NCBI GenBank assembly: GCA_044228225.1
Contig: JBGAVH010000021.1
Span: 1,737 to 65,736, forward strand
Direction of reading: 5' to 3'
Source of the DNA: Saprospiraceae bacterium
GTDB taxonomy: Bacteria > Bacteroidota > Bacteroidia > Chitinophagales > Saprospiraceae
DNA: 64,000 bases
Of this stretch, positions 1,173-59,354 are shown in pieces; the first letter of the stretch is position 1, and every line of letters starts with the position of its first letter. The translations under genes and the position numbers were made by a program. The notes below the pieces were generated by a model. It was not told where the DNA came from. It saw only the letters and a program-made list of their open reading frames with translations, and made no database searches.

Positions 1173-2165
1173 CTATTTATTTTGTTCCATAAAAGCCCTA
1201 ATTCTTTCCGCATAAAGATCAGAATAACGAAATATATGACTTCTTATTCCCATGACACGATCATCCATTTCCCTTTCGCGCAATAATTCTGTATTGACCA
1301 TCTGAATGAGCTTGCGCCTGGCTTGTTTTTCTATGATCCAGCCTCGCTCTGGATCAGGTTCACAAGATTCAATCAATATTTCTTGATTTCTAATATGTTC
1401 TACTAAGCAATAATCGAACCAGGGTCTGAATGGTTCTATGAGATCAAAAGATAAGGTAGGTTCATCGATCTGATCCCTATGCATAAACCCAAATGTAGGA
1501 TCCATGCCACTAGCAAAAATGGCTTGCTCCACAACATGGTATAACATCCCATAACAATAATTGAGTAAGGCATTAAATGGATCTTTTGCTGGTCTCCGAC
1601 TACGTTCTTCAAATTGCCATTCCGGGTCCAAGAAATCATTGAGTTGTCTCCAATATATTTTAGCCACAGTTCCTTCATATCCCATTAATCTACTTCGTTC
1701 TTCTTCAAAAGCTAGTTCACTGGGTGTAAGTATTTCTTCTAAATGTAATTCAATATCTTTTGTAGTCTGTTGATTTTCTTTTTTGGATCCATATTGTTTT
1801 GATAATTGTTTTAGTATAGAAATTTGGTTGTTTGTTTTTTCTCCAAAAATTAATTTCATCTCTGCGATTCTAAAATCATCAGATTCCAATGCCAATACTT
1901 GAAGTCTTCTTAATTGATTATAATGCGATAATTCAGAACTCCATAATCTGCCGATAATATCTCCAGTTCTATCTACAAAAAATATGGGTATCTTATTCGC
2001 AATAGCTAATTCCACTGCTGCACTGGAGATCATGCATTGATTCGTTATAGCTATACTACTGATTCGTGTAGGTGCTATAAGTCGTGCAGTACTGTCGTTT
2101 TTTATTTGAAAGCAATGATTCCTTTTCTTGAGATAGGTACCTTGGGTGTCAATAATTAATTGCAT
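1173..2165 (-). CDS. cas1: CRISPR-associated integrase Cas1
   Basis: The 330-aa protein carries Cas1-type catalytic segments MGYEGTVAKIYW and FGFMHRDQIDEPTLSFDLIEPFRP (E...H...D/E). It is adjacent to cas2. Confidence 0.92.
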   Translation of the reverse strand: MQLIIDTQGTYLKKRNHCFQIKNDSTARLIAPTRISSIAITNQCMISSAAVELAIANKIPIFFVDRTGDIIGRLWSSELSHYNQLRRLQVLALESDDFRIAEMKLIFGEKTNNQISILKQLSKQYGSKKENQQTTKDIELHLEEILTPSELAFEEERSRLMGYEGTVAKIYWRQLNDFLDPEWQFEERSRRPAKDPFNALLNYCYGMLYHVVEQAIFASGMDPTFGFMHRDQIDEPTLSFDLIEPFRPWFDYCLVEHIRNQEILIESCEPDPERGWIIEKQARRKLIQMVNTELLREREMDDRVMGIRSHIFRYSDLYAERIRAFMEQNK

Positions 2166-2713: not shown

Positions 2714-2806
2714 ACTCCAACTCCCTATAGCCTTCACCCTAACTCCCTATAGCCTAACACCCTACAGCCTAACCACCTACAGCCTAACCCCCTATAGCCT
2801 AACCCC
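2714..2806. repeat. Short-word tandem repeat (CCTAYAGCCTAAC, period about 15), right flank of the four-helix-bundle gene
   Basis: CCTATAGCCT occurs at 2724, 2746 and 2791, and CCTACAGCCT at 2761 and 2776. The orientation is inverted relative to the left flank. The repeat abuts the RT stop codon at 2806-2808. Confidence 0.85.
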
Positions 2807-3852
2807 TAATAATCAAAATCTAACCAACTCATAGCTCCATATTCTTCTTGCTTGATTTGATTAGCATGAATCCATATGTGGTTTAATTCTTTATATGCTG
2901 ATTGATTCGCACCCAATACCATTTTTACGAATTGCAATCTCCCTTGGAGAGATTTTTTATATTTATCCATGTATGATGGTGGTTCGGTTCGGTAATATCC
3001 ATTCACGAGATTCATGTGTTTTAAGTTTTGCAATTCCTTCCTCAATTCATTAAGATACGAATCACTGAGACTTAATTGATCATTAATAAGCGAAATTCCT
3101 GTGATGACTTTAATATCTTCTAGACCATAGAACTTGATCTTTGATTTATTCATTTTAAAACCATGATGTATGATAACAGCATCTAATTCATGCACATCAT
3201 GTTGAGTTATTGGAAGCGCACTACTGAATGACATATCATCGACAAATCTTGAGTAATACCACTTTTTACTTCCCGCTAAATCATGCAAGACTTTGTCAAG
3301 GTGAATCAATGCAAAATTGGAGAGTACTGGTGAAGTAGGAGCTCCCATAGGTAATCGACCATTATAACTCACCAATTGAATCAGTAATTCGATTAATGGC
3401 TGTTCCATATGAAATGGTGCTTGTTCAAATATCAAATGAATCTTATCATCCGTCACATGATGGAAAAAATCCAATAGATCAATATTCAATAAATAATTAG
3501 AGCCCAAATGTACTTTGGCATTCGATAGAATATTTCTTTTTTGTTTAATATCATTATCCGGTGTAGCTACAAAACCATGAGCCCCCTTGGGCAAACAAAA
3601 AAAATAAACACATTGGAGATAATCATTTAATGTGTCTTGTATTTCTTTTAGTTCATTATATGGATCTTCAATGGTTCTGTAGCCTCCTGATTTCTTTTTT
3701 TGTTTAAAATTTCGATATGTGATGGATTGAATAATCTGAGGTAATGTTTGTTCAGGTATATTCAATAATTCACATAATGCATGCACTGTCCTAATACTTA
3801 GAAACTGATGTTTCAACGACTTCATTACTGATAGTGTAAAATTATGCGCCAT
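2806..3852 (-). CDS. Stand-alone CRISPR-associated reverse transcriptase (group II intron-like RT)
   Basis: The 348-aa protein shows RT motifs NIDLLDFFHHV (motif 3-like), PMGAPTSPVLSNFALIHLD (motif 4) and YYSRFVDDMSFS (YxDD box as FVDD). It is located between cas6 and cas1. Confidence 0.85.
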   Translation of the reverse strand: MAHNFTLSVMKSLKHQFLSIRTVHALCELLNIPEQTLPQIIQSITYRNFKQKKKSGGYRTIEDPYNELKEIQDTLNDYLQCVYFFCLPKGAHGFVATPDNDIKQKRNILSNAKVHLGSNYLLNIDLLDFFHHVTDDKIHLIFEQAPFHMEQPLIELLIQLVSYNGRLPMGAPTSPVLSNFALIHLDKVLHDLAGSKKWYYSRFVDDMSFSSALPITQHDVHELDAVIIHHGFKMNKSKIKFYGLEDIKVITGISLINDQLSLSDSYLNELRKELQNLKHMNLVNGYYRTEPPSYMDKYKKSLQGRLQFVKMVLGANQSAYKELNHIWIHANQIKQEEYGAMSWLDFDY

Positions 3853-3922: not shown

Positions 3923-4606
3923 CTAACAAAGAACTTGCACGCCATAACCAAGACGTACATTCTTGCCAATGGCAATTCGTGGTGGCAAAACTAAATTAAC
4001 CGTGTATAGGATATCGAATACTAAGAACCTAAGACTTTTATCCGGTCTAATTAATTTATAAAAAACAAAATGCAAAACTTTAACATTAATAATTCCAGGA
4101 ACATGCCACCCTATTCCTTTACACAATTGCATCAACAATGAACCCCTAATTCGCTTCTCTAGATCTAAAACTTGTTCTTGATAAGACAAGGCAAGCCATG
4201 ATTTATGACTATCAGGATCGAATGGTGAATAGGCTTGAATAAAATATTTATTTGGCTTTTCTGTCAATGACATCACAAATGAATATTGGTATTTTCTCAT
4301 TTCCGTAACATCGTGTGTGACCCTATCTTTAAATTCATGAATCCCGCCCACAAAATCCATATTCAGTTGATCAGCACCTTGTTGTATTCCGAAAATTCCA
4401 GCACATCCCAGATAGGAACGAAATTGTATCAGAGGATAGAGATTTTCAGATTCCCCTGTTATAAGATCATGACTATGATATAATGGATCTCTAACATCAA
4501 AATAATTTGCCACATCTTTTTGCCATATATATATATCTTTTAAGCTATATGGAGCGGATGTTAATATTTCAGTTATAAGTAAAGGGAAGGTCAATGATTT
4601 CTGCAT
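3923..4606 (-). CDS. cas6: Probable Cas6 crRNA-processing endoribonuclease
   Basis: The 227-aa protein has a C-terminal glycine-rich loop IGKNVRLGYGV typical of Cas6/RAMP proteins. Its position next to RT-cas1-cas2 fits the Cas6-RT-Cas1 fusions known elsewhere. No other Cas6 candidate is present in the locus. Confidence 0.6.
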   Translation of the reverse strand: MQKSLTFPLLITEILTSAPYSLKDIYIWQKDVANYFDVRDPLYHSHDLITGESENLYPLIQFRSYLGCAGIFGIQQGADQLNMDFVGGIHEFKDRVTHDVTEMRKYQYSFVMSLTEKPNKYFIQAYSPFDPDSHKSWLALSYQEQVLDLEKRIRGSLLMQLCKGIGWHVPGIINVKVLHFVFYKLIRPDKSLRFLVFDILYTVNLVLPPRIAIGKNVRLGYGVQVLC

Positions 4607-4875: not shown

Positions 4876-6183
4876 TCATTGTAAAATTGCACTTGTAAAG
4901 AAAAGGTTACCTTTTTTTTCGCTACCTTCTTTCTGAGTCAATTTTATTTTTATTATATCACCGACTTTTTTTACACATTTACCCTGTATAGATATTTCTG
5001 CACTATCCTTATAGTGAGGTTTCACCTTTATGTTTCCAGAACCTACATTTATTATAGTAGCGTCTATCGTTGAATTTAGCATTGTTTCTTTTGAAGATTC
5101 AAATTCTTTTGTATTTACATTCAAAATTAATGTGGTTAGTCCTTTGGGTATGCTATTTTCATCATGCTGCTCAATATCATCAATCGTAATAGGATTAAAA
5201 TTTTTAATTTCCAAGAATGGATTTCGAGCATTATTAATAATATCTTTTTTAAACTGTCCATAGCCCGAAGAGGTTTTTGCACCTATACCATATTTTTGCA
5301 ATAAATACTTAATAAGTTTTACTTTGTGTTCTTTCTTTATTCCTTCATTATTGAGAATAAATTGAAAATTAATTTCCACATCAGGCAAAATTTTTAAAAA
5401 TCGGAGAGGCATAGGGTCAAATAAGGGATGTGGGTGATAAGCAAGAGTATCATCAAAAAGAAATGTACCCAATGAGATTGAAATATCTCTTTCACCATTA
5501 TAATTTGTAGTGTTTGCTATGCGATCAGATACAGTAAAAACAATATTTTTAGTTGTGCCTCTTGAAGGATAAGCCCCTAAAAAGGTATCTTGTTTTAAAG
5601 GGTTAATCTTGGTTTTATCAGTCTTAATTCCTTCAAATAAAATATTTTGAAGACTCTCAATATCACTTTTAGTCCAAGTTTTATTTTTAAACTCTTCTTC
5701 ATTTGCAAAGCAGTTATTAAAATCATCAATTATTCTATTTAAAACTGCCTTCTCTTTATCTTTTTTGTAAGCAATAGGAAAAAAACTTCGTAATCTTCCT
5801 TTTAAATTATGGCCTGTAATGCATGGAATTCCAGTACTATGGTCAAAATAAAACCCCATTTTAAGTTCATGAGATTCAATTTTAATGTGAATATTTTCCC
5901 CATATATTTGTTTTTCAATTTTAACTTTTGCGCCTGTTCCATGTTCATTACCTGTTCCAATTAATAATCCTTGTCCTGATGTTATTAATGTAAATGAAGA
6001 ATACTCATCACCAAATCTACTTTTAAGATTTAATTGTTCAGGATTCAAATCTGCTAATTTGGTTTCAATAAGTAACTTATATAATTCCATGTTATCAATT
6101 CTGTATTGCAGATTTAGCGCTTCATTGTTATGTAAGTTTCTGTAGACCCTTTTATTGAACTCTAACCCTAAATTTGTTTCCAT
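4876..6183 (-). CDS. cmr6: Type III-B RAMP subunit Cmr6 with a C-terminal extension of about 120 aa
   Basis: The 435-aa protein has the RAMP motifs ITGHNLKGRLRSFF and the G-rich loop GAKTSSGYGQF at about aa 300-311. It occupies the last position of the canonical cmr1-6 order. Confidence 0.8.
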   Translation of the reverse strand: METNLGLEFNKRVYRNLHNNEALNLQYRIDNMELYKLLIETKLADLNPEQLNLKSRFGDEYSSFTLITSGQGLLIGTGNEHGTGAKVKIEKQIYGENIHIKIESHELKMGFYFDHSTGIPCITGHNLKGRLRSFFPIAYKKDKEKAVLNRIIDDFNNCFANEEEFKNKTWTKSDIESLQNILFEGIKTDKTKINPLKQDTFLGAYPSRGTTKNIVFTVSDRIANTTNYNGERDISISLGTFLFDDTLAYHPHPLFDPMPLRFLKILPDVEINFQFILNNEGIKKEHKVKLIKYLLQKYGIGAKTSSGYGQFKKDIINNARNPFLEIKNFNPITIDDIEQHDENSIPKGLTTLILNVNTKEFESSKETMLNSTIDATIINVGSGNIKVKPHYKDSAEISIQGKCVKKVGDIIKIKLTQKEGSEKKGNLFFTSAILQ

Positions 6184-6184
6184 A

Positions 6185-6652
6185 CTAAACCAATTTAAAT
6201 TTTCTGATTGCCAATTTCAATGCATTGCCAGCAGTTAGCAAATTAATTAATGCTCTTGTATTTAACATACCATTTGAGGTATTTTCTTCAATGTAGTCGC
6301 TTAAATTTTCTTTTGTAGTTAAGCTAGAATTCTCTTTTAGTAATAGATTTAAGATCCATAGAGTTACAATACTTTTATCTTCACTGCTACCTTTGCTACT
6401 ATTATACATTATGCTTGTAGACAATGGCGTCATAATAATACAATTAGCATTAAAAGATGATATATAACCGTTATAAGTTTTTGGTTTTTCAGTATCTGGA
6501 TATAATGTGGAGTCTTTTTTCTTAAACTCATGAAGTTTTATTATTTCAACTGCTTTTGGGATTAGACTATTGACCCTGAATTTATTTATTGTTATCATAA
6601 ACTTAGAATTTAGAAATTGATGTAAATCCATAAGAGACTGAGGCGTTTCCAC
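6185..6652 (-). CDS. cmr5: Type III-B small subunit Cmr5
   Basis: This is a small helical protein between cmr4 and cmr6. The listed start overlaps cmr4 by 50 nt. An alternative ATG at 6598 (MITINKF...) would start just after the cmr4 stop and give about 137 aa. Confidence 0.7.
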   Translation of the reverse strand: METPQSLMDLHQFLNSKFMITINKFRVNSLIPKAVEIIKLHEFKKKDSTLYPDTEKPKTYNGYISSFNANCIIMTPLSTSIMYNSSKGSSEDKSIVTLWILNLLLKENSSLTTKENLSDYIEENTSNGMLNTRALINLLTAGNALKLAIRKFKLV

Positions 6653-7469
6653 CTACCTGAAGTGGTCTTTTATTATCGCCACAAAGGGTTTCTTCCACAA
6701 ATTTTTGTTGTTCCATATTCTTCCAAATATTTGCAAAATACATTAGACTAAATCTTGGTAAAACCTGTTCGTACCAAAGGTTCTGGCTTTCGCCATCGTC
6801 CAGAGCATTCCTTGAAATTACAGGTAAATATAAATCGGAACAAAGTTCTGCCATTGTTCTATCTGATACTAATGCTATTCTTGAATTAATTGTATCAAAT
6901 AGTGTATTAAGTAATTCTGCTAATTCATTGTTAGCAGAATTATATTGTAAAGTAGTGCCAACAATATCCAATTCAGCTCCTGAGTAATTATTATTAAAAC
7001 ATATTCCTGATTCTGGAGTGCTGTCTGAAACCAGTGTTTTAACTTCTTCATATATTGACTTTGAAATGGGTTTTCCCAACAATTTGCTCATATACTCAAA
7101 GGAGTTTATCAATTCTGGGGAGGTCGTTAATAAATACGACACTTTATTTGTCCTTACTGGCATTGCCAACAAGTGAGCTGTAAAGAAAACACTTTCTCCT
7201 TGTTGAGTAATTGTAGGAATGCCGCCTTTGTTTGCACTGGCATCGCTACCAAAAATCAAAGTCATCAATTCATTTTTGTTGTCCGCAGATGAATAATTGT
7301 CAACGTGTTGTTTAATAGCTCCTTTCATACTTGTGCTATTAAAGCAAGGGTACCCGGTTGCAGAATCTCTTTGAATGAGTTGGTCAATAAATCCAAACCC
7401 TGATTCTCCTGTGCCTACATGTGTATCTGTAATGGTTTCTAACCTGTAAAACTCTACATTATTGCTCAT
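6603..7469 (-). CDS. cmr4: Type III-B backbone RAMP subunit Cmr4 (target-RNA cleaving subunit)
   Basis: The 288-aa protein has an N-terminal segment ETITDTHVGTGESGFGFIDQLIQRD...STSMKGAIKQH matching the Cmr4 pattern (HVGxG ... D ... SxKG). Confidence 0.85.
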   Translation of the reverse strand: MSNNVEFYRLETITDTHVGTGESGFGFIDQLIQRDSATGYPCFNSTSMKGAIKQHVDNYSSADNKNELMTLIFGSDASANKGGIPTITQQGESVFFTAHLLAMPVRTNKVSYLLTTSPELINSFEYMSKLLGKPISKSIYEEVKTLVSDSTPESGICFNNNYSGAELDIVGTTLQYNSANNELAELLNTLFDTINSRIALVSDRTMAELCSDLYLPVISRNALDDGESQNLWYEQVLPRFSLMYFANIWKNMEQQKFVEETLCGDNKRPLQVGGNASVSYGFTSISKF

Positions 7470-8613
7470 TTTTTAACGTGTTTAATTGTTTGAAATAATT
7501 GTATCCTATTTTTTTATATGTTTTATTTATTTGATCTTCATTTATTGTATTTATGAATTCAAGTAATTTAACAGGATTTATAAATGCAATACTTCCTTTT
7601 TTAATTAATAATTTGCTATCAGAAAAAATATCAGCATTACCTTTCTTTAAATTGAACAGGTCATTTAAATTATTTTTTGCATCAGTTTTCATAGAACGGA
7701 AATGTTGAGTAGTACCGACGAATTGAGCAATATTTCTGTATGCAGAATGGCTTAGTATAGTGTCACTGATAAAATGAACTATATTACCACCTTCAATTTG
7801 TGAAGTAAATAGATTTACATCTGGTATGTTTTCTTTTTTTATACTTACTTTATAAGAAGAAGCTTCTCCTCCAAAAGTAATGAAAATGTTTTTCGAATCA
7901 TCTAATAATTCGTCAATATCAGCTAAAAATGAAAAGTGATAATTTCGGTTTAATTTATAATATTGAGTTTTGAAGTACGCGTCATCTTGAGAACTGGCAT
8001 TATAGTTTTTTAAAATACCAGGTTGTAAATGTTTAATAAAAATACCATTATTAATATTTAATTTTTTAGTTTTTTGATCAAAAAAATTGGCTGTTGAAAA
8101 AATTTCCTTCTTGCAAATCATTGCTACCGGCTTAGAATAGTTTGATGGAATAAAACAATCATTAAAAAAATGTTCCTTCATATTTAATTGTTCTGATAAT
8201 TTCACAGAATTTATTACTGAACTTATTGTATTTAATTGTGAAACATCTATGTTGTTAAAACTAACATTAATATCTGAAATGTTTGTATTCACAAGATTGC
8301 TCAAATCTTTAAAAGGTAATAGAACTTTTTGTTCATCTTCTTTATAAATAAAAAGTGGATATACTTTATTTATTTTTCCAAATATTTGATTTTTGGAACC
8401 GTCAAAACTTTTAATACCTATTAGATTATCCCAGTCGTCTTTTATATCTATTTTACCAGTAGCTAAAAGTAAATAATGCCGAATTAAACCTAGTATACCA
8501 GTTTGCTGTGGAAATGGATTGCTTTCCATAAAGTAGGAAGGTCTGATGGGATGTTTTTCTTTTCCAAAATAGAACTTGTCTAGTGGAGTTAAAATAAATT
8601 GATAAATTGCCAT
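7459..8613 (-). CDS. cmr3: Type III-B subunit Cmr3
   Basis: The 384-aa protein starts with MAIYQFILTPLDKFYFGKEKHP, a typical Cmr3 start. It sits directly after cas10. Confidence 0.75.
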   Translation of the reverse strand: MAIYQFILTPLDKFYFGKEKHPIRPSYFMESNPFPQQTGILGLIRHYLLLATGKIDIKDDWDNLIGIKSFDGSKNQIFGKINKVYPLFIYKEDEQKVLLPFKDLSNLVNTNISDINVSFNNIDVSQLNTISSVINSVKLSEQLNMKEHFFNDCFIPSNYSKPVAMICKKEIFSTANFFDQKTKKLNINNGIFIKHLQPGILKNYNASSQDDAYFKTQYYKLNRNYHFSFLADIDELLDDSKNIFITFGGEASSYKVSIKKENIPDVNLFTSQIEGGNIVHFISDTILSHSAYRNIAQFVGTTQHFRSMKTDAKNNLNDLFNLKKGNADIFSDSKLLIKKGSIAFINPVKLLEFINTINEDQINKTYKKIGYNYFKQLNTLKNEQ

Positions 8614-8618
8614 AATGC

Positions 8619-10376
8619 TTAATGTCTAAATTCGTTATCTCTAATAAAATGAATAAATTTTAGCATAGAAACAATAGTGTTTAAAGTAATTGAATCGTAC
8701 CCTTGATTTTTTAAAATTGCTTCTATCCATTCTCTGACTTCTTTTAAATATGTCAAAAATTCTTTATGTATTTTTTCGTTAAAACTTATTTCGAACAAAT
8801 CCTCCAAATTTGTTACATTAATATCTAAATATTGCCCATAGTTTTCTATTATTTTTTTATGAATTGAGTTTAGAAATTTATCTGATTTTTCTCCAGTTAA
8901 ATTTTTAGTATTGTTACAATTTAAAAGGCTTAAATATTTTTTGAAAACATCATAAAAATTTTTGTCAATGATACCATAATAATTTTGTTTGCTATGTTTT
9001 TGCAAAACAAAATGCAACCTGTTTCTGCTTTTGTAATTATTATCATTTTTGACGGCATACATCAGTTCTTTGCTTTGTTCAAATGCTTCTCTAAGTGGAA
9101 ATTTGTAATAAGTGATGGAAATACCATAAGTCATGCAGGGTCTATTTCCTACTATTTGTTCATATTTTTCAAATGTATTGTCCGGTTTCTTCTTATTAAA
9201 TATTTCTTCAAAACAGTTATCTAAATCAGCTACTAAATCAAATACTGTTTTAAATTCATTCTTCTCGTTGATTGAGGCAACAGGCGCAAAGAAAACTAAT
9301 TCATCCCCTCCAATATAAATAGGCGCAGCGCCATATCCCCACTTTGTTTTGCTGCCATTGGTAAACCTTTCTCCAGCTAAAATTCGATTTGCTTCATATG
9401 AAAAATTTACTAGATCTGCTGAAAATTTTTGAATTTCAATATCATCGTTTAAAGTGCCAATTAATTTACCCATATTATCTCCATCAGCATGTACTATGGC
9501 AATATATTTATGGTAAGTTCTTAGGTGGTTATTCAATTCTGGAATTTCTTTAAATATATATTCCAATGAACTTGTGTCTTCTTTGAGTTTAATTTCTCCA
9601 GTATTTTCATCATCCATGTTTTCTGGTTCTACAATTTTTAATTTTGCTAAATCACTTCTAATTTTATTTCTTATTTTATCTTGTGCTAGGTATTTGTCAT
9701 CTTCTTTTTTTATAAATTGAAGCTCATTAGTTGCAATTTCAGTCAGACTCGGAAATCCATTTTTATTGACTGTACCAAAGGCATCTTTTACAAGAAAACT
9801 ATGGTTAATAAAATGTAACAAAACATAAAATGGATCTGGATCATAATGAGCCAATGAGGGCATTAATTCGGCATTGTCTAAGTATAAGTTCAATGATTTT
9901 ACAGGTCCTATAAGTTCATTTTCGTCATTGACGAAACATAAATCCTTTGAATCTGCTTCTATTGCATATGCCTTAAAGTAGTCATAAAAAAAAGATTTTA
10001 ATCCATGCTCATCCTTTTTAAGAACTTTAATTTGTTCCGTATATTCTCCAAAGGTGAAATTTTTATTCAACTCATTCCATAATTGTTTAGCAATGTTTTC
10101 TTTAACTTCCTTAATGATTGTATTGATTTCGACGAAATTCCCATTTTCTTTCAAAGCCAGTAAGATTCTATCTGGAAATAGCCCTACGCCTGGTGTGGTT
10201 GCATTTATATATTTTGTATCTGGTAGTAAAACGATATACTTATTAGTATCAATCATTTTTAAAATTTCCTTACAAATATATGCAAACATATAGCTGGCAC
10301 CCCAAATCTCTCTTGTTTTCTGTGCTTTTTTTAGTGTGTCATTTATCGGACCTAAAGTTATACCAATGTATTTCAT
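8619..10376 (-). CDS. cas10: Cas10/Cmr2 large subunit lacking an HD domain, with cyclase palm retained
   Basis: The 585-aa protein starts with GITLGPINDTL...REIWGASYMFAY, the segment that normally follows the HD domain. Its palm motifs are IAIVHADGDNMGK (D298, D300) and YIGGDELVFFAP (GGDE at aa 356-359, nt 9300-9311). Confidence 0.88.
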   Translation of the reverse strand: MKYIGITLGPINDTLKKAQKTREIWGASYMFAYICKEILKMIDTNKYIVLLPDTKYINATTPGVGLFPDRILLALKENGNFVEINTIIKEVKENIAKQLWNELNKNFTFGEYTEQIKVLKKDEHGLKSFFYDYFKAYAIEADSKDLCFVNDENELIGPVKSLNLYLDNAELMPSLAHYDPDPFYVLLHFINHSFLVKDAFGTVNKNGFPSLTEIATNELQFIKKEDDKYLAQDKIRNKIRSDLAKLKIVEPENMDDENTGEIKLKEDTSSLEYIFKEIPELNNHLRTYHKYIAIVHADGDNMGKLIGTLNDDIEIQKFSADLVNFSYEANRILAGERFTNGSKTKWGYGAAPIYIGGDELVFFAPVASINEKNEFKTVFDLVADLDNCFEEIFNKKKPDNTFEKYEQIVGNRPCMTYGISITYYKFPLREAFEQSKELMYAVKNDNNYKSRNRLHFVLQKHSKQNYYGIIDKNFYDVFKKYLSLLNCNNTKNLTGEKSDKFLNSIHKKIIENYGQYLDINVTNLEDLFEISFNEKIHKEFLTYLKEVREWIEAILKNQGYDSITLNTIVSMLKFIHFIRDNEFRH

Positions 10377-11734
10377 TTTACCTGTGGTTTCAATTGTTCA
10401 TAAATATTATTGATAATTTTGTATTCATTTGTAGTTCGAAAACCATTAATGTCCTCCACCCAATTTGAATTGTAAGTACTTATAGCATATTGTAAAAATT
10501 CAGAATAATTAAATTTAACAGGGTATTTTAATTTTAATCCACTAGTGCCTTTGAAATCTACTTTGAATATTTTATCTAAAATTTCTGATTCCCCATTTAT
10601 TGTTGCCCCATTTTCAAATTGATATTGAATATATGGTGGTACTCCAAAAAACACCCGATATTGTTTTTCCGCTATTTTAATAGGCTTAAATATTAGGGGC
10701 GATTTAAAGCGATTTATTTTAGAATCTTTAAGATCAATACTTTTATTAATTTTCCAATAGCTTGCTGATTCTGTTGATGACAATCCCAATAAATCTCTCC
10801 ATAAATGCCTTTCTAAGTAATCTGGTAATCTATCTTCGTACCCTAATGGGAAATTACTATTATTAGAGTTTGGTCGCATAGTCTTAACCGCTGCATCATC
10901 AAATCTTTTTATAATATTTCCTTGTCTATCAATTATTTTTAGTTTGTTCTTGTATTTATTTTTTATACTCTTTTTATCCCAGTGTTCTTTTTTGCTTTTC
11001 GCAAAAGCCCACATTAGTGATTTAAAATAAAAAATATCATTTCCTTGATTGTCTTTTACATTATGTCCACTTCTTAGTGTTTTGTAAAAAAAATTAATTA
11101 CTTCAAAAACAGTATAGAAAAGCTCTTTTTGATTTTTTTCATATTTTAATTTATTTTCATCAACATCAAAATAATATGGTAATATATCTTGCCTTATTAA
11201 ATAGTCATACTTTTCAATTGGATAATAAGAACCAAATCCTTTACTTTGTCTAGTTCCAAAATTCTTAAGTAAAAAGAAATTAGCAATTACACTATCTATG
11301 TATATTAATAAATCTGTATATACCGACTTTATTTTAAGTGTAATTAAATCATTTACAATTATTGCCTTTTTATACTTTGTTTTATCATTAAATGATTCTT
11401 CGTTCATCATATTTCCGAAAAAGCCAAGTTTTTCTGTTTGACTTTTGTCATATATTTTTGCATTAGTACTGTTGAGGAAAATTTCTACCTCATAATCAAA
11501 GCTTGGATTTGTTGGTTTTGTTGAATGTTTGAGCCAGTTTTTTAATTCATAGTTAGATGTTGCTGCATTCAACCTTTCTGCTTTATCGCTACTAAAACAA
11601 TTGCTTTTGTCTCCTATAATAAATTTATCTAATGCTGCTTTCAGTTCTGTACATCTCAATGATGCATCTGTCAAAAAATATTGGAAATGAATGATTGGGG
11701 TATGCTGTTTTAATGAATATTGTAGTTGATACAT
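10373..11734 (-). CDS. cmr1: Type III-B RAMP subunit Cmr1 (large variant)
   Basis: The 453-aa protein has the RAMP G-rich loop FGTRQSKGFGSY. It holds the first position of the cmr1-cas10-cmr3-4-5-6 order. Its stop overlaps the cas10 start by 4 nt (ATGA). Confidence 0.7.
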   Translation of the reverse strand: MYQLQYSLKQHTPIIHFQYFLTDASLRCTELKAALDKFIIGDKSNCFSSDKAERLNAATSNYELKNWLKHSTKPTNPSFDYEVEIFLNSTNAKIYDKSQTEKLGFFGNMMNEESFNDKTKYKKAIIVNDLITLKIKSVYTDLLIYIDSVIANFFLLKNFGTRQSKGFGSYYPIEKYDYLIRQDILPYYFDVDENKLKYEKNQKELFYTVFEVINFFYKTLRSGHNVKDNQGNDIFYFKSLMWAFAKSKKEHWDKKSIKNKYKNKLKIIDRQGNIIKRFDDAAVKTMRPNSNNSNFPLGYEDRLPDYLERHLWRDLLGLSSTESASYWKINKSIDLKDSKINRFKSPLIFKPIKIAEKQYRVFFGVPPYIQYQFENGATINGESEILDKIFKVDFKGTSGLKLKYPVKFNYSEFLQYAISTYNSNWVEDINGFRTTNEYKIINNIYEQLKPQVK

Positions 11735-11739
11735 ATCAT

Positions 11740-12051
11740 TTATTTAATTAGATTTTTTATATAATTAATATCGTCTTCATTGTAAGAATTGATCAACGAA
11801 ATGAGTTTTTCATTAAATTTTTTATCAATTTCAATTTTATTTTTGAGTGGTGTAATATTGTTAGAATGGAGATCTTTTTCTTTTTGTAATTTAAATTGTT
11901 TTTCTTCAAGTTCATGTTGGCAATTTAACATTTTTAATTTATAAGCTTCTTTTGAGCAATGTAAAATTACTTTTGTGGAAGAATATATAAAGTATACAAG
12001 AATTACGCCACCAACAAACCAAGGAAGAAAGTCTTTAATTACCTGTTCCAT
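11740..12051 (-). CDS. Small membrane-anchored coiled-coil protein, unknown function (CRISPR-operon embedded)
   Basis: The 103-aa protein has one N-terminal TM helix (FLPWFVGGVILVYFIYSSTKVIL) followed by a charged K/E-rich helical region. It overlaps the 3' end of the CorA-like gene by 13 nt and ends 5 nt before cmr1. Confidence 0.6.
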   Translation of the reverse strand: MEQVIKDFLPWFVGGVILVYFIYSSTKVILHCSKEAYKLKMLNCQHELEEKQFKLQKEKDLHSNNITPLKNKIEIDKKFNEKLISLINSYNEDDINYIKNLIK

Positions 12052-13622
12052 ATTTTATTTTTTTGAAATTGTTTATATATTTTTACTATTGAATATAATA
12101 CTAAAATTATACTTCCTGAATAAGTAACCCAATCAAAAATACTAAATGTATTCCACCAATTATCATTATTAGGAATGCTAGTTAGTTCATTTGGTGTATG
12201 AGTCGGATTGCAAGTATTCATTCCAATTAAAGAAGCGATCAAAGTCAGTGGTAAGAAATCATTAGCAACTTTCGACAAATTGCTCTGTTCTTGGGTCTCC
12301 ATATATTCATTGAGTTCTTCAATTTCTTTACCTAGGCTATCTACATCTAGCTGTATTCTCATTTTTTCTTGAAGCATATCGTATAGTTCTATACCTTGTT
12401 CTTGAGCTGTAACTTCTCTAAAATATATTCTATTTTTGAATTTTATATAGTTTAGATACAATGTTGATATGTCATTTTTTTGAGAGAATTTTGAACTTGC
12501 ATTTATGGATTTAGAAATTCTAGCTACTTCTTTACTGTACAGTAGTAAATAGGCTCTTTGCAATAAGCATAATAACACCAAGTCAAAATATTGATTTGCC
12601 ATGTGAGTTGAAACAATGTTTTTTGGAAAATACTCTTGACCACTTAACATGACAAATGAATATCTACTCAATCCATATATTTGTGAACCTTCTGGGTCTT
12701 CATGATTAATCCATCTTTTATAGGTATGTTTATCAACCATTTCTTTCCGCATTATAAAATTGGAGCATCCAGGTTTTGAATCATCAATAAATATATATCG
12801 ATACCATTTATTAATGGTTTCTTTATTACAGAATAGCGCGTAAGTTGACTCTGCTGCACAATAACATGTGAACTCTTTGGCTAACTCATTATCGAGTATA
12901 TGTGATATTACAAACATTCTATCGTCTAAAATTGGTTTGACAACACATTTATTATAATCTGAAGTATTGCCACCAAAGTGGCTTCCTAATAATCCAAAAA
13001 TATGCTTTGGTTGAATTGCGGCATCTAAATTGGTATCAAAGGACTTAAAACCTTCTTCAACATCACCAGGAAATATGTTTTTGAGTGTTATTTTATCAGC
13101 TAAAAAACCGTATTCTTTTATAGGCTTTGTATATTCATTTTGTTCAACTCCTAAATATTGCGGATAAATACGCCTTCCATATTCATTTATTTTTAATATT
13201 AATTTGAAGTCTTTAGTTTGATAGTTTAATAAATGAAATGCCATAATACCAACTCCATTTTCATAAAATCCTAACATAATGTCTTGGATCTTTAATTTAA
13301 TGGTTTCTTCACCTATTATGTCAATTTCATACGTAGGATCTGAATAATTAAATTTACACTGGTATTGTCTTGCATTAATGTCATTATTTGGATCATTATT
13401 CAAGTTTAATACATCTCTTGCATATTCATAAAAATAACTGTATATATTGTATGTATTAATATTGTCATCAACTTTATTTTTAAATTGGAATTGTTCCCAT
13501 ATATTTTTTTCTTGGATAAATTCGGAGATTTGTTCTAGATTAAATCGATTATCATTGTTACTATTGATTTGCCATGAAAATGGAAATATGAATAGATGTT
13601 GTGAATGAAAGTTAATATCCAT
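12039..13622 (-). CDS. corA: CRISPR-associated CorA-like membrane effector
   Basis: The 527-aa protein has a C-terminus DFLPLTLIASLIGMNT (CorA GMN motif in TM1), then a periplasmic loop, a second TM helix (IFDWVTYSGSIILVLYSIVKIY) and a basic tail KNKIWNR. Its soluble N-terminal domain of about 440 aa is much longer than in housekeeping CorA. Confidence 0.82.
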   Translation of the reverse strand: MDINFHSQHLFIFPFSWQINSNNDNRFNLEQISEFIQEKNIWEQFQFKNKVDDNINTYNIYSYFYEYARDVLNLNNDPNNDINARQYQCKFNYSDPTYEIDIIGEETIKLKIQDIMLGFYENGVGIMAFHLLNYQTKDFKLILKINEYGRRIYPQYLGVEQNEYTKPIKEYGFLADKITLKNIFPGDVEEGFKSFDTNLDAAIQPKHIFGLLGSHFGGNTSDYNKCVVKPILDDRMFVISHILDNELAKEFTCYCAAESTYALFCNKETINKWYRYIFIDDSKPGCSNFIMRKEMVDKHTYKRWINHEDPEGSQIYGLSRYSFVMLSGQEYFPKNIVSTHMANQYFDLVLLCLLQRAYLLLYSKEVARISKSINASSKFSQKNDISTLYLNYIKFKNRIYFREVTAQEQGIELYDMLQEKMRIQLDVDSLGKEIEELNEYMETQEQSNLSKVANDFLPLTLIASLIGMNTCNPTHTPNELTSIPNNDNWWNTFSIFDWVTYSGSIILVLYSIVKIYKQFQKNKIWNR

Positions 13623-14218
13623 TACATTTTATTTAATTCTTTAAAACATACTAATTCCATCCTGGCATCAAACAATGCATTATGCAATTTCAAACCATCT
13701 TTATCTATATAATCGATTAATCCGTAACCTTCTTCATTTTTAATTCTAGGTATTTCTACAGAATACCCTTTGAATTGAATGAATGTAGCTAGATCCAAAC
13801 ACATATAATGTATATTTTTTGGAATCTCAAAAGCCCCTCCGAACAATTCACAGAATAACACCCAGTCCCAATGAGGTACATCACCCCAGATCTGGATATT
13901 TGGAATAATATGGCCATGCTGATCTCTTTTCAATTCAAATTGACCAAACCATATCTTTAAAGCTGTAGCAATTTCTTTCTTGCCACCTTTAATATGCATT
14001 TTTCTAAGATCTTCCCAATTTTGATTTGCATCATTAAGGCATAAATTAGCAATAACATGTTCTTCTAACCAAGGCGTTAATTGCTTAACATCATAATCCG
14101 TAAATTCAGCATAGAATTCCTCTCCATTCATTCCAACCAATGCCAGTGAAATCAGCGTCGTATCCTGACGTAATCCGGTGAATTCTGTATCGAGAAACAG
14201 CTTTGCGGTTAGTTTCAT
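13622..14218 (-). CDS. DEDDh-family 3'-5' exo(ribo)nuclease (Rv2179c-like), first gene of the type III-B operon
   Basis: The 198-aa protein has ExoI FLDTEFTG (D10, E12), ExoII PHWDWVLF (D118) and ExoIII HNALFDA (H179, D184). Its stop codon overlaps the CorA-like start codon (TAATG). Confidence 0.85.
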   Translation of the reverse strand: MKLTAKLFLDTEFTGLRQDTTLISLALVGMNGEEFYAEFTDYDVKQLTPWLEEHVIANLCLNDANQNWEDLRKMHIKGGKKEIATALKIWFGQFELKRDQHGHIIPNIQIWGDVPHWDWVLFCELFGGAFEIPKNIHYMCLDLATFIQFKGYSVEIPRIKNEEGYGLIDYIDKDGLKLHNALFDARMELVCFKELNKM

Positions 14219-14577
14219 GTGGGGGTTAAGATTTGGGGGTTAGTTGGCTTTGCTTTTCATGTTAGGAACAATATGGATCTCTGGTCCGAATGACCTTGTG
14301 AAATAGGGTAGGGTTGAAAATGAGAAGTTGATAAAAACTATTATTACTCATATTAATTAATTCATAAATGCATTATTAATTGATTTGCTTATTAATATAT
14401 TATTGCAATGTCTAAGTATTGGAGAATATTAAAAAAGTTATTTGGTCAACAACAAAATCTTAATGAACTCCTAACGCTAAAGATAGAAATATTTAAATTG
14501 CTGGTATGTTTATAGGTATTTATTTTTTAAAAATAATTTAGTTGACAGTATTATAGTAATTAGTCTACAGAATAAAA

Positions 14578-14668
14578 GTCGTCAGTTGTCAGTCGAAAGA
14601 GTAATAAAGGAAATCTGGTAATCGGTAATCATTATCTATGGTAAGTCGTAATGGGGTAAATTGTAAAT
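14578..14668. repeat. Heptamer-word low-complexity block (GTCAGTT/GTCAGTC, GGTAATC x2, GGTAAGT/CGTAATG...)
   Basis: The block reads gtcgtcagttgtcagtc ... ggtaatcggtaatc ... ggtaagtcgtaatggggtaaattgtaaat. It lies in the 619-bp intergenic region upstream of the CRISPR-Cas operon. Confidence 0.6.
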
Positions 14669-14836
14669 ATCAGACTTCCATTTTTTTAAGAATTCTTTGG
14701 TTTGAAGTTAACTTTATTACAGTTCTTACAGCATCGATGAACTGAGCCTATTAATTTTAGTGGCTTATTATACAAGTTCAATTAACTGTCTATATTTAAC
14801 CTTAAATCTTATGCAATAATCCATTTAAGATTTACC

Positions 14837-15292
14837 TTATTCCAAATTGATTATTTTATACTTTATAGCATTGAACTCAAAAGAGTCCTTAATCTTTTTA
14901 GCCAACATGGCTACAGCCAAAGGTGAATGTTCAGAAATCACCCAGACCTCATGACCTTCCACCATAATCTTTCCCAATCCAAGAGCAATAAAAAATGTTC
15001 TATCTTTAGTATAGATGAGTGTTCCCAACTCAACTTCAGAATGATGCTTAAAAGCTTGAATTCCATTTAGGATTTCCATATCTTTATTGGCTTGCTCCCA
15101 TTGTTTAGCAAACATATCTCTGTTTAGATGCCCCATGGCTCTACCCGTTTCAAATTTATCGCCGGCGCTGCTCTTTTCCTCATTCAAGGTGGATTCATGA
15201 GCACTGTTCATGGCTTCTTGGGCATTGTCCATCCGAACTTGTACCATTATTTTACAAGCATCTAAAACTGATTTTTTACTGATTGTTTTCAA
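14837..15292 (-). CDS. GreA/GreB C-terminal-domain-like protein
   Basis: The 151-aa protein has a C-terminal segment VISEHSPLAVAMLAKKIKDSFEF resembling the GreA C-terminal domain pattern (SxxSPxxxALxGKKxGD). Confidence 0.5.
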   Translation of the reverse strand: MKTISKKSVLDACKIMVQVRMDNAQEAMNSAHESTLNEEKSSAGDKFETGRAMGHLNRDMFAKQWEQANKDMEILNGIQAFKHHSEVELGTLIYTKDRTFFIALGLGKIMVEGHEVWVISEHSPLAVAMLAKKIKDSFEFNAIKYKIINLE

Positions 15293-16084
15293 AATCTTTA
15301 ATTTTTACTTTCATAAAAAGGAGATAGATTTCAGAAAAGTTCCCTATTTATCTAGGTCGCAATATAATAAGACAATGTAATATTCCTAGAATTTTACCAG
15401 AATAAAAAAATTTGATTAAATAATAGGTCACAATTGATTGAATAAACTGAACACCTAAATATTATTGCTTTAACTTCACTTCAATGATATAAAAAGACTA
15501 AATTAAACAATGCAATAGAGTCTAAACTACTATTTATTTGATCCTCACCAAGTATATCATCTGATCTCACAATAGTCATTGAAATGAAGTTATCGCCTTA
15601 TATGTTGAATCCAATAAAGAATCATTTATCCTCTACGCTTTAAGCCAATATCTCTAAAATGGACCAAAAAATGAGGTATGATATATGCTTTGCGCGTGAA
15701 CCCGATAATTAAGTTTAATATATATTGGTAATTGTACACACAAAGTGTATTTAAATCAAGAACTAAGGACAAAGGCTAAAGTGAAATGATTAAATGGTTT
15801 AAATATCAACTTAGGGTCAAATCTATAGGCTACGTCACTGAAAAAATTATTATTGCTTCAAAGATTTTTCTTATAAAAATCATTATCTCAAAAAACTGGA
15901 ATTTAATACAAAATTTCTTGGATTCTGTAAAACATATCGCCTTAGCTCGACTTTTCAGAAATATCCAATATTATTAAGTGAATTGAAACCATAATTTTCT
16001 GCCTCACCAATTAAAAATTCTTTAAAATCCAAATAACATATGCTTAAATATAATCAACTTTGCGAAATAATAAATAATTTATAT

Positions 16085-53281: not shown

Positions 53282-54043
53282 TCACAACAATCCTGGAAAT
53301 ATTGCCTTACGCTTTTTAGGATAATCACTAAAAGTTTTTCTATACCATTTGTGATGACTCCAAGCCCTTGGAACTAAATTAGCAACAGTCCATACAGCGA
53401 ATCCCAATGCAGGTAAATTCCAACACATAATGGCAAAACCTAACCATTCCATTATTTCACCAAAAAGATTGGGACATGATATATATTCGAAGAGCCCACC
53501 TCTTGGAATTAGATATACATTGGGATTGCCATTTCGAAGATGTATTAAATAATTATCTGCAAAAAAATTAATTAGCATACCCGTGATGAATAATATAATG
53601 CCAATAATAAATCTCAAATCAAAAAACCAATCATTCGTATAAGTCTCCAAATATCCTAAATAATATCCATTGGTCCCGGCATTAATAACATTAAAAAATA
53701 TAGCAGAAGCAACTATTCCAATGGGAATTAATTTATCTTTAGTTCGGGTCCTAAATGGGAAAATAAAACTTCTATAAACATAATGTAATGCCCACAATCC
53801 ATAGGCAACCCATGCAAAAATTGATTTCTCTCCCGGAGCACCAAGAAACAAAATACTCAATCCAATAATGGAAACCGCCTCCATGATAACCCATCCCCAA
53901 CGATTAGACATGCTCTTACCCCAGGCAGTATTGTAATGCCTGCCATAAGGTGCCGTTATAAAAAATTGGATGGGTATTATGACTATTGCCAATCCGATCC
54001 ACGCATACATGAAGGTGTTAAGTTGTACTAAAGAAATATCCAT
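53282..54043 (-). CDS. 3-oxo-5-alpha-steroid 4-dehydrogenase (steroid 5-alpha-reductase / DUF1295) family membrane protein
   Basis: The protein is polytopic and has the C-terminal signature YISCPNLFGEIMEWLGFAI. Confidence 0.75.
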   Translation of the reverse strand: MDISLVQLNTFMYAWIGLAIVIIPIQFFITAPYGRHYNTAWGKSMSNRWGWVIMEAVSIIGLSILFLGAPGEKSIFAWVAYGLWALHYVYRSFIFPFRTRTKDKLIPIGIVASAIFFNVINAGTNGYYLGYLETYTNDWFFDLRFIIGIILFITGMLINFFADNYLIHLRNGNPNVYLIPRGGLFEYISCPNLFGEIMEWLGFAIMCWNLPALGFAVWTVANLVPRAWSHHKWYRKTFSDYPKKRKAIFPGLL

Positions 54044-54685
54044 GGATTCAGTATTTGACGATTAGTAAAAGAATTTTTATATAAATAAAAACCCAAATGT
54101 ATAGAAAATAGAATTAAATATCAAAAAGAATTAGTAGTCAATATATCTACATATAAAACTCACAAATTATATTTTTTAAAACAAAAAGTCATATCTAAAT
54201 ATAATATCATATTGATTCCTTATCGATTGGATAAATTAAGTAAGTATAAATAAATATACCATATATTCCAATTCTTTAATAGTAAATAAAATATCTATTT
54301 GGAACTTCTATTCCTAATTTTCATATGATATTTAAATAATAATACAAACTCTGCAAATCAGAATAAAGATTCAATTAACTTGATTGACTCAAATCACTAA
54401 CTAAATTTGATAATAAATTACTAAATTAATATGATTAATTTAAGACATTCAAACTATTTCTCACAAGAGCCACATGCATAATGAATATTTGGTTTCCAAA
54501 AATTAATCTTTAAAATAATAGCATTCAAAAATATTTGTGTATTTTTGCAATAAACTATTCCAATAAATGAAAATTATAGTATATCCAAACTCAACAGAAT
54601 GGAGAATTTAGATATAATTTTAAATAGTTATTTAATCTAAGAGTTCTATTTATATATTCAATTTAGTAAAACAATAAATCGATTA

Positions 54686-59029: not shown

Positions 59030-59354
59030 AAATTAAAGATTTGTCTATTTCCACTACAAGGATATTCAATTTTTGACATCTAACTAAAACAGGTGGGTAA
59101 ATTTTTTATGTTTTTAATTGATTTAAAGAAATTTCGGATTAGCTTTGATATAAAATTATACCATTGAGATTTATAATTTAGTTCAATATATTTAGGTGTA
59201 ATGCCAAATGAAAAATAATTTATCTATTAACTTTGGACTAATTTGTTTTTCATTTCGGTATTAATAGTCTCTTACCAACATATTTTACAATTGAACTTAT
59301 TATGGCTAAATTATTCTAAATTTGAATAATTTCGATTTTAATAACACTTTTGTT

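Follow-up and report, generated by a model that had tools for sequence, protein, structure and literature searches.

A type III-B CRISPR locus of Bacteroidota with a CorA-type membrane effector and a DEDDh exonuclease is a probable member of the SAM-AMP signalling class

Which signal and which effector would be used by a type III-B (Cmr) CRISPR locus whose Cas10 has no HD domain and which has no CARF or SAVED effector in view? This question is raised by an operon of nine closely packed genes on the minus strand of a 64-kb stretch of DNA from a Saprospiraceae bacterium (contig JBGAVH010000021.1), the whole of which is called the window here. The operon is found at 4876-14218 (open reading frame, ORF, coordinates), and the order of its genes is DEDDh exonuclease, CRISPR-type corA, a 103-amino acid (aa) membrane ORF, cmr1, cas10 (without HD), cmr3, cmr4, cmr5, and cmr6. 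We conclude with good confidence that this is a complete III-B locus of Bacteroidota and that it belongs to the DEDD sub-variant of the CorA-1 class, in which the signal is S-adenosylmethionine (SAM) joined to adenosine monophosphate (AMP), or SAM-AMP. The features of type III-B are all found: the Palm of Cas10/Cmr2; Cmr1, 3, 4, 5, and 6 in one operon; and a CRISPR array with Cas6. All the sequence-level features of the CorA-1 SAM-AMP class (Chi et al. 2023) are found as well. An earlier note made from the letters of the window alone, the sequence-only reading, had proposed a III-B operon wired to a CorA-like protein in the SAM-AMP signalling class, and the sequence-level signatures all agree with this proposal. 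The same reading left the signal molecule, the effector, and the off-switch open; all three can instead be predicted by close analogy.

The nine genes of the operon are listed below with the matches or features that identify them (TM, transmembrane; RAMP, repeat-associated mysterious protein).

13622..14218, minus strand: DEDDh 3'-5' exonuclease (198 aa), first gene of the operon; Pfam Rv2179c-like, 33.4 bits (cut-off 27)
12039..13622, minus strand: CRISPR-type CorA effector (527 aa); PADLOC CorA-like, 324 bits, E=3.1e-97, full length
11740..12051, minus strand: small membrane ORF (103 aa); N-terminal TM helix at about residues 8-25, charged all-helical tail
10373..11734, minus strand: cmr1 (453 aa); PADLOC Cmr1, 1.4e-57; PDB 9lq5_A (Bacteroides fragilis Cmr1), E=2e-16
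8619..10376, minus strand: cas10/cmr2 (585 aa), Palm/cyclase with GGDE, no HD; TIGR02577, 101 bits (cut-off 79)
7459..8613, minus strand: cmr3 (384 aa); Pfam Cas_Cmr3, 26.6 bits (cut-off 21)
6603..7469, minus strand: cmr4 (288 aa), backbone RAMP and target-RNA nuclease subunit; TIGR02580, 140 bits (above its cut-off)
6185..6598, minus strand: cmr5 (137 aa); PADLOC Cmr5, 3.9e-14; PDB 9lq5_G, E=0.006
4876..6183, minus strand: cmr6 (435 aa); TIGR01898, 76 bits (cut-off 51)

The junctions along these genes are -1, -13, +5, -4, +5, -11, and +1 nucleotides (nt). At the first of them (-1), the DEDDh stop and the corA start have TAATG in common (AAAATGTAATGG). The operon and its TAATG, 13-, 4-, and 11-nt overlaps had been described in the sequence-only reading with exact coordinates, and only the boundary between cmr4 and cmr5 has been adjusted. 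The mechanical ORF of cmr5 begins at a GTG 50 nt inside cmr4 (to 6652). Translation probably starts from the ATG at 6598, 4 nt past the cmr4 stop, which would give a product of 137 aa compared with 136 aa in B. fragilis Cmr5; this 137-aa product is aligned end to end with Cmr5 profiles. A scan for sigma-70 promoters and terminators, which does not cover Bacteroidota promoters, gave results no better than shuffles.

All the subunits, Cmr1 to Cmr6 with Cas10, are assigned by profiles (TIGR, Pfam, PADLOC). Direct Pfam and NCBIfam scans give nothing for CorA, Cmr1, Cmr5, and the 103-aa ORF; PADLOC assigns the first three but not the small ORF. Cmr3 has 32.5 bits against TIGR01888, under its cut-off of 100.4 bits. 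Among solved structures, Cmr1, Cas10, Cmr4, and Cmr5 each have their best relative in a chain of 9LQ5, the B. fragilis SAM-AMP-synthase complex (e.g., Cmr4 and 9lq5_D, E=1.6e-39), and the GxIDxLIQRDS motif of Cmr4 is kept. A fragment of 335 aa (P0124) that is 100% identical to the 9LQ5 sequence bears the name B. fragilis in NCBI. For the census, 80 related loci from reference genomes were sampled (L-numbers name single loci). A cmr1 homologue is found after corA in 72 of the 80, cmr3 homologues are found in 56, and the order corA-cmr1-cas10-cmr3-4-5-6 is kept in every locus whose contig is long enough.

Cas10 is a predicted SAM-AMP synthase. Besides TIGR02577, it matches Pfam Cmr2_N and Cas10-Cmr2_palm2 (E=3e-19) and B. 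fragilis Cas10 (PDB 9lq5_B, E=1e-37). The HADGDNMG and GGDE motifs noticed in the sequence-only reading are present, and the absence of HD noticed with them holds in alignment: residue 1 aligns to residue 1 of the B. fragilis Cas10, which has no HD domain (Chi et al. 2023, PMC10600005), and the Cmr2_N match begins at residue 3. In B. fragilis Cas10, D70 and E151 are reported as absolutely conserved among CorA-1 Cas10s, and the D70N/E151R variant makes pppApA and no longer SAM-AMP (Chi et al. 2023, PMC10600005). When 62 CorA-linked Cas10s including that of B. fragilis are aligned, D69 and E170 of the window Cas10 stand in the columns of D70 and E151. These acceptor-pocket columns hold D in 62/62 and E in 61/62 sequences. 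The catalytic motif is GGDE here, its D358/E359 matching the position of GGDD in B. fragilis. D-E is also found at the catalytic site of the SAM-AMP-making Cas10 of a III-D2 system, where the catalytic mutant is D347A/E348A (PMC13294483).

The second component that defines the class is CorA. The 527-aa protein has a distinctive N-terminal cytoplasmic domain (the predicted sensor), stalk helices, two TM helices, and the GMN motif. Its C-terminus (...FLPLTLIASLIGMNT, a loop, a second helix, and a basic tail) had been read as the CorA signature from sequence alone, and the full-length PADLOC match identifies it as a CRISPR-type CorA. There are 724 homologues, and 34 of the 42 aligned members match PF01544. 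A profile of this family matches the stalk and TM region of CorA channels in PDB (E=1e-7, residues 425-520). A phmmer search of the single protein against PDB gave elongation factor P only, which was set aside as a chance match; CorA is reached by the family profile. The model built by AlphaFold2 (AF2) on the family alignment (pLDDT 87.5, pTM 0.83) has a mixed alpha/beta N-terminal domain, long stalk helices, a first TM helix ending at GMN, a disordered loop, and a second TM helix. This agrees with the published description of CRISPR CorA as a CorA-like C-terminus joined to an N-terminal domain whose fold is unique (Chi et al. 2023, PMC10600005). Sequence comparison thus places the protein in a divergent CRISPR-specific branch and not among housekeeping CorA proteins. 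Canonical CorA Mg2+/Co2+ channels (PF01544; T. maritima, 4eeb, 3jcf, and 2bbj) likewise have the C-terminal stalk helix, two TM helices, and GMN, whereas the N-terminal domain of about 330 aa in the window protein is unmatched in them and its gene lies in a cas operon.

With the CorA of locus L083, a B. fragilis-group locus whose Cas10 is 90% identical to B. fragilis Cas10, the window CorA has 32% identity (residues 6-482, E=1e-59). R150/R151 and D233/D234 correspond to R152/R153 and D219/D220 of B. fragilis, and these pairs are kept in L083 and invariant in 42 homologues. Mutation of these pairs abolishes immunity by the B. fragilis system (Chi et al. 2023, PMC10600005).

The same CorA could be read as acting mainly through regulated transport of divalent cations, by which the CRISPR response would be tuned, and not as a lethal or dormancy pore. 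Such a role has been reported in type VI-B1/RT systems, whose CorA is derived from the III-B CorA-1, transports Zn2+, Ni2+, and Cd2+, and down-regulates Cas13b interference (PMC11662929); the window protein keeps GMN as well as a CorA-like TM region. Against this stands the III-B model system, where immunity needs CorA together with NrN (PMC10600005), and the III-D2 system, where CorA is needed for growth arrest (PMC13294483). Moreover, with no HD in Cas10 and no other effector in view, RNA cleavage by Cmr4 would be all that is left to this locus if CorA were not toxic. We regard the transporter role as unlikely, though it survives better than the other alternatives considered below.

The third component is the exonuclease encoded directly upstream of corA. 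All of Exo I (DxE), Exo II (D), and Exo III (Hx4D) are present, and D10, E12, D113, D118, H179, and D184 are kept in 22/22 CorA-linked homologues. Its nearest named families are the adenylate-releasing 3' exoribonucleases RNase AS/Rv2179c (E=1e-8 with PDB Rv2179c, 4oke). At 56 bits, under the equivalog cut-off of 200 in NCBIfam, it is not an RNase AS equivalog. DEDDh proteins are 3'-5' exonucleases of the Orn/RNase T/RNase AS type. In SAM-AMP, the 3'-OH of SAM carries the AMP (Chi et al. 2023, PMC10600005), and therefore an exonuclease of this type would release 5'-AMP and SAM. Degradation of SAM-AMP by DEDD is also predicted in the literature (PMC10600005, PMC11229360, PMC13294483, and the 2025 classification paper). 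By the presence of its gene, the DEDDh protein is thus the predicted SAM-AMP phosphodiesterase, i.e., the off-switch.

From these components the following course of defence is proposed. The transcript of the array would be cut by Cas6, and Cmr1, Cas10, Cmr3, Cmr4, Cmr5, and Cmr6 would assemble on the CRISPR RNA. Binding of complementary foreign RNA would activate the Palm domains of the HD-less Cas10, which would join SAM held in the acceptor pocket (D69, E170) with adenosine triphosphate (ATP) held in the donor site (GGDE) to form SAM-AMP. SAM-AMP would then bind the cytoplasmic N-terminal domain of the CorA-like protein, presumably a pentamer, with its conserved R150/R151 and D233/D234. The bound CorA would perturb the membrane and cause growth arrest of the infected cell. 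DEDDh would strip the 3'-terminal AMP from SAM-AMP, in the role that NrN has in B. fragilis. The reverse transcriptase (RT), Cas1, and Cas2 would add spacers, which may be derived from RNA. The 103-aa membrane protein would be an accessory translationally coupled to corA.

Several points weigh against placing the locus in the SAM-AMP class. SAM-AMP synthesis, its binding by CorA, and its cleavage by DEDD are inferred by homology at 30-40% identity, and in the literature searched no assay of SAM-AMP with a CRISPR-linked DEDD is found. The presence of CorA alone does not fix the signal, since one CorA clade has been proposed to respond to cA6, a cyclic oligoadenylate, and clades may differ in activator (Hoikkala et al. 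2024, PMC11229360). Searched alone, the window CorA has no Pfam match at E<=0.01, PF01544 included. All the top Foldseek matches of the CorA model in PDB are T. maritima CorA (probability 0.8-0.98), with weak scores (E about 2e-3, TM 0.16-0.27) since superposition is poor for a monomer with long helices; this result is consistent with a CorA fold but not decisive. The array passes the left edge of the window, so that a further effector may lie past it, and three spacer 24-mers have no exact match in a viral contig collection.

A second alternative is that CorA senses a cyclic oligoadenylate (e.g., cA6 or cA4) or another nucleotide in place of SAM-AMP. The proposal of this type was made for an Actinomyces CorA clade linked to Csm6-2 (PMC11229360), the 2025 classification paper describes the signal of III-D CorA systems as unclear, and the intact Palm/GGDE site of the window Cas10 could in principle polymerise ATP. 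However, Cas10 has both acidic residues of the SAM site, whose conversion to N and R in B. fragilis shifts the product from SAM-AMP to pppApA (PMC10600005), and the phosphodiesterase gene attached to corA (DEDD) is of a SAM-AMP type. The window CorA clusters with III-B CorA-1 relatives and not with the Actinomyces ones. No match to Csm6-2, CARF, SAVED, or a ring nuclease is found in the window; in agreement with the sequence-only reading, no ORF of at least 120 aa in it has a CARF or SAVED match in Pfam. A cyclic oligoadenylate or another nucleotide as the signal is accordingly judged improbable, slightly more so than the transporter role, and SAM-AMP is kept as the predicted signal.

The system most useful for comparison is the III-B Cmr/CorA/NrN system of B. 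fragilis (PMC10600005; 9LQ5-9LQ8). Both have an HD-less Cas10 beginning with MKYI(G/A)ITLGPI and the acceptor residues D and E. In both, Cas6 is of the Cas6b type, the adaptation module is RT-linked, and corA and cmr1 have a small TM/charged ORF between them. They differ in the phosphodiesterase, which is DEDDh here and the DHH-family NrN in B. fragilis, and in an NYN gene that is present in B. fragilis but not in the window locus. The RT is separate from Cas1 here but fused in B. fragilis. The Cas10 motif is GGDE instead of GGDD. The small ORF has 103 aa and one TM helix instead of 159 aa and two, with no detectable sequence similarity. While cas6 and the adaptation genes are downstream of cmr6 here, cas6 is upstream of corA in B. 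fragilis.

The sequence-only reading took the DEDDh nuclease, the RT adaptation module, and the small TM protein for a new accessory repertoire. This does not hold for the first two. In the CorA-1 cluster, corA typically adjoins a phosphodiesterase, either NrN or a DEDD-family nuclease, and RT-linked adaptation genes are drawn in CorA-1 loci (Chi et al. 2023 Fig. 1b, PMC10600005). DEDD, NrN, and lyase genes beside CorA have been mapped on the CorA tree (Hoikkala et al. 2024, PMC11229360). DEDD-type CorA-1 III-B loci have been published from Streptococcus oralis and Syntrophothermus lipocalidus (Chi et al. 2023 Fig. 1b, PMC10600005). Among the 80 loci, a DEDD homologue is found in 21, directly upstream of corA in 20 of them; a separate NrN is found in 17 and an NrN-CorA fusion in 13. 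The order common to DEDD-type loci is DEDD-corA-(small ORF)-cmr1-cas10-cmr3-cmr4-cmr5-cmr6(-cas6-RT-cas1-cas2), and Saprospiraceae/Chitinophagales loci of this type have the same order (L001, L003, L006, L054, L073, L081, and L087). In L081 and L087, the part from DEDD to cas6 recurs with the small ORF position included, and many of the 80 loci show this pattern too. In L086, the order from corA to cmr6 is the same until the contig ends, and the gene lengths are nearly identical to those of the window. The most similar CorA is that of L081 (51% identity), and the best Cas10 match is in L054 (E=2e-137). Compared with these loci, the window locus shows no difference in kind, its only local peculiarity being a four-helix-bundle cassette between RT and cas1. 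The locus is thus a further well-preserved example of the DEDD sub-variant of SAM-AMP/CorA III-B defence. It shows that the published signatures, the acidic pair of Cas10 and the RR/DD pairs of CorA, hold at about 30-40% identity. With its relatives, this compact operon gives ready templates for the DEDD branch of the off-switch.

An unusual gene arrangement touching CorA and NrN is found in L024 (29-3016). Two CorA-type genes are in tandem there, and the upstream one, clipped by the contig end, encodes a CorA TM region followed by a C-terminal NrN-like domain, the reverse of the usual order in NrN-CorA fusions.

A more distant comparison is the III-D2 CorA system (PMC13294483). Its target-RNA-activated Cas10 also has a GGDE-type site and makes SAM-AMP, together with SAM-AMP2, and its CorA causes growth arrest. 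However, its effector complex contains Cas7x3 and Cas7-5, SAM is read by E8 and Q186 and not by the D70/E151 pair, and its CorA is only about 15% identical to III-B CorA. The off-switch candidate there is a VapBC-like toxin-antitoxin module (PMC13294483).

What is left of the proposed novelty is the small membrane ORF between corA and cmr1. It overlaps the corA stop by 13 nt. A single-sequence AF2 model, which is informative for secondary structure only (pTM 0.32), gives helices at residues 2-63, 67-89, and 92-102. The only homologue found in a word-indexed search of 5.8 billion proteins and a HMMER search of 1.84 billion representatives is one 97% twin. In a database of 5,882 ORFs, it matches its positional counterpart in the closest relative, L081, with E=3e-7. 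Neither Pfam nor PADLOC has a family for it, and ten gap ORFs of other loci gave sub-threshold noise in them, with no Csx27-like match.

ORFs of this type recur at the same position. A gap of 200-700 nt between corA and cmr1 is found in 25 of the 80 loci, and a same-strand ORF fills it in 24 of the 25. When the architecture is defined as one or more TM-like segments and, after them, a tail of 35 aa or longer in which 29% or more of the residues are charged, 26/27 gap ORFs have it, compared with 1.9% of all the mechanical ORFs of 60-210 aa that these loci contain. Sequence kinship among gap ORFs exists within sub-clusters only (E down to 5e-31). Because similarity is limited to these sub-clusters, and in the two large searches to a twin for the window ORF, common homology of the gap ORFs is not established. 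Loci with a gap ORF are all labelled Bacteroidota, except L005, which is labelled Cyanobium. By locus type, the gap ORF is found in 14/21 DEDD loci, 5/17 NrN loci, and 0/13 loci with an NrN-CorA fusion; about two thirds of the related loci have no small ORF at this position.

Another example of such an ORF is found in B. fragilis. Genomes of this species and a close relative have the arrangement cas6-NYN-NrN-corA-[159 aa]-cmr1. This ORF (6295-6774 in L084) shares 4 nt with the end of corA, and its product has two TM helices and a charged tail. Between two strains it has 90% identity and a ratio of nonsynonymous to synonymous substitution rates (dN/dS) of 0.13, compared with 0.08 for CorA and 0.10 for NrN, so that by sequence comparison it is under purifying selection. 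The published ancillary genes of the B. fragilis system are CorA, NrN, and NYN, and the small corA-cmr1 ORF is not mentioned in the literature searched on CorA/SAM-AMP systems. The small ORF is thus a recurrent real gene and the only fresh point of the locus. The sequence-only reading was right in listing an extra small TM protein, but wrong in treating it as peculiar to this locus, since B. fragilis has one too.

A role for the small protein can be guessed. Translational coupling, membrane location, and co-occurrence, the sole basis of this guess, suggest a membrane partner or modulator of CorA. Somewhat short of an even chance, we would say, is the idea that it is an overlooked fourth ancillary part of Bacteroidota CorA/SAM-AMP systems, that of B. 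fragilis among them, and works with CorA in the membrane. If so, the small protein might restrain, assemble, or localise the CorA channel. This could help explain why CorA is toxic without signal and why the phosphodiesterase is strictly needed in E. coli reconstitutions, which lack the ORF, and it would bear on two open questions of the authors of the model system, the toxicity of CorA and the need of NrN for immunity. Note that the small ORF is not essential in E. coli, because the published reconstitution worked without it.

Two related loci differ at this position. In L081 (2866-3072), the counterpart has 68 aa and no hydrophobic N-terminal helix, and it keeps a C-terminal motif in common with the window ORF (KNRLEIGQKFNAKFISSISSF and KNKIEIDKKFNEKLISLINSY, respectively). 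Since this counterpart has lost the hydrophobic helix, the TM anchor is not universal. L044, a Chitinophagales locus, has an insert of 3.9 kb between corA and cmr1 (11600-15548). It encodes a protein of 994 aa in which a trypsin-like N-terminus, a P-loop NTPase region, and C-terminal pentapeptide repeats can be recognised by eye. The insert may be another defence gene lodged in the operon.

Beyond cmr6, the same strand carries cas6, RT, cas1, cas2, and then a CRISPR array of 12 repeats.

3923..4606, minus strand: cas6 (Cas6b-type, 227 aa), pre-crRNA processing; Pfam Cas6b_N and Cas6b_C
2806..3852, minus strand: stand-alone reverse transcriptase (348 aa), adaptation module; Pfam RVT_1
1173..2165, minus strand: cas1 (330 aa); Pfam Cas_Cas1, 233 bits
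865..1167, minus strand: cas2 (100 aa); Pfam CRISPR_Cas2, 55 bits
1..781, minus strand: CRISPR array, 12 repeats of 35 nt; plus-strand repeat GTTTCAGTGCGTCATTTCTACGCTATCAAATAATC, the first clipped by the window edge

The repeats are identical, and the minus-strand reading of the repeat ends with ...ACTGAAAC. They separate 11 unique spacers of 32-35 nt. A stand-alone RT beside cas1 is found in 13/80 loci. In L082, the ORF after cmr6 is an RT-Cas1 fusion and not CorA. The best PADLOC models for the RT of the window are of the defence type, RT-Protease_XI, RT-TIR_XII (about 220 bits), and RT_III-A; PADLOC may simply hold no CRISPR-RT model.

A third alternative, judged very improbable, is a locus that is decaying or silent, with a 103-aa ORF that is open only by chance: degraded copies are known in B. 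fragilis (L084 and L085, with split cmr1, cas10, and cmr3), the ORF has only its 97% twin among 1.84 billion representatives, and no target was found for the three spacer 24-mers in the viral contigs, but each of the 14 genes has its full length, the junctions are coupled, the catalytic residues are kept, the array has identical repeats and unique spacers, an ORF of the same architecture recurs in nearly every corA-cmr1 gap and far above the rate of like-sized ORFs, and the dN/dS of the B. fragilis-group small ORF is low.

In the two B. fragilis copies (L084, GCA_044780315.1; L085, GCA_044781405.1), cmr1, cas10, and cmr3 are each called as at least two genes at about 6788-11141, which suggests frameshifts. 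cas6, NYN, NrN, corA, and the 159-aa ORF are called intact in both. The splits are either a decayed interference complex or assembly errors.

The cassette in the adaptation operon of the window is a gene of 121 aa on the minus strand (2234-2599), found between the RT stop and the cas1 start (2168-2812). Its product, a four-helix bundle, matches Pfam 23S_rRNA_IVP with 110 bits, which we take to be the family that also holds Avd, a protein of diversity-generating retroelements (DGRs). The gene is flanked by 56-nt imperfect inverted repeats made of tandem TAGGCTATAGGCTGT units, with 6 copies compared with 0.04 expected. The gene is absent from all 80 related loci, in which RT and cas1 lie next to each other. 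It looks like an intervening-sequence-like cassette inserted in the adaptation operon. A DGR-like function, as an Avd-like gene beside an RT might imply, was set aside because of this absence and of the cassette-like flanks.

The other genes of the window include many type IX secretion proteins (Por_Secre_tail, CHU_C) and one TonB-dependent receptor. Type IX secretion is linked to the phylum Bacteroidota, and the window is read as part of a Bacteroidota chromosome because of these many genes. The region at 54000-60000 has a G+C content of 0.25-0.28, compared with about 0.32, and its GC skew is reversed. It encodes a protein of 1447 aa with DUF7619 and receptor-L/leucine-rich repeat (LRR) domains and has no relation to the CRISPR locus.

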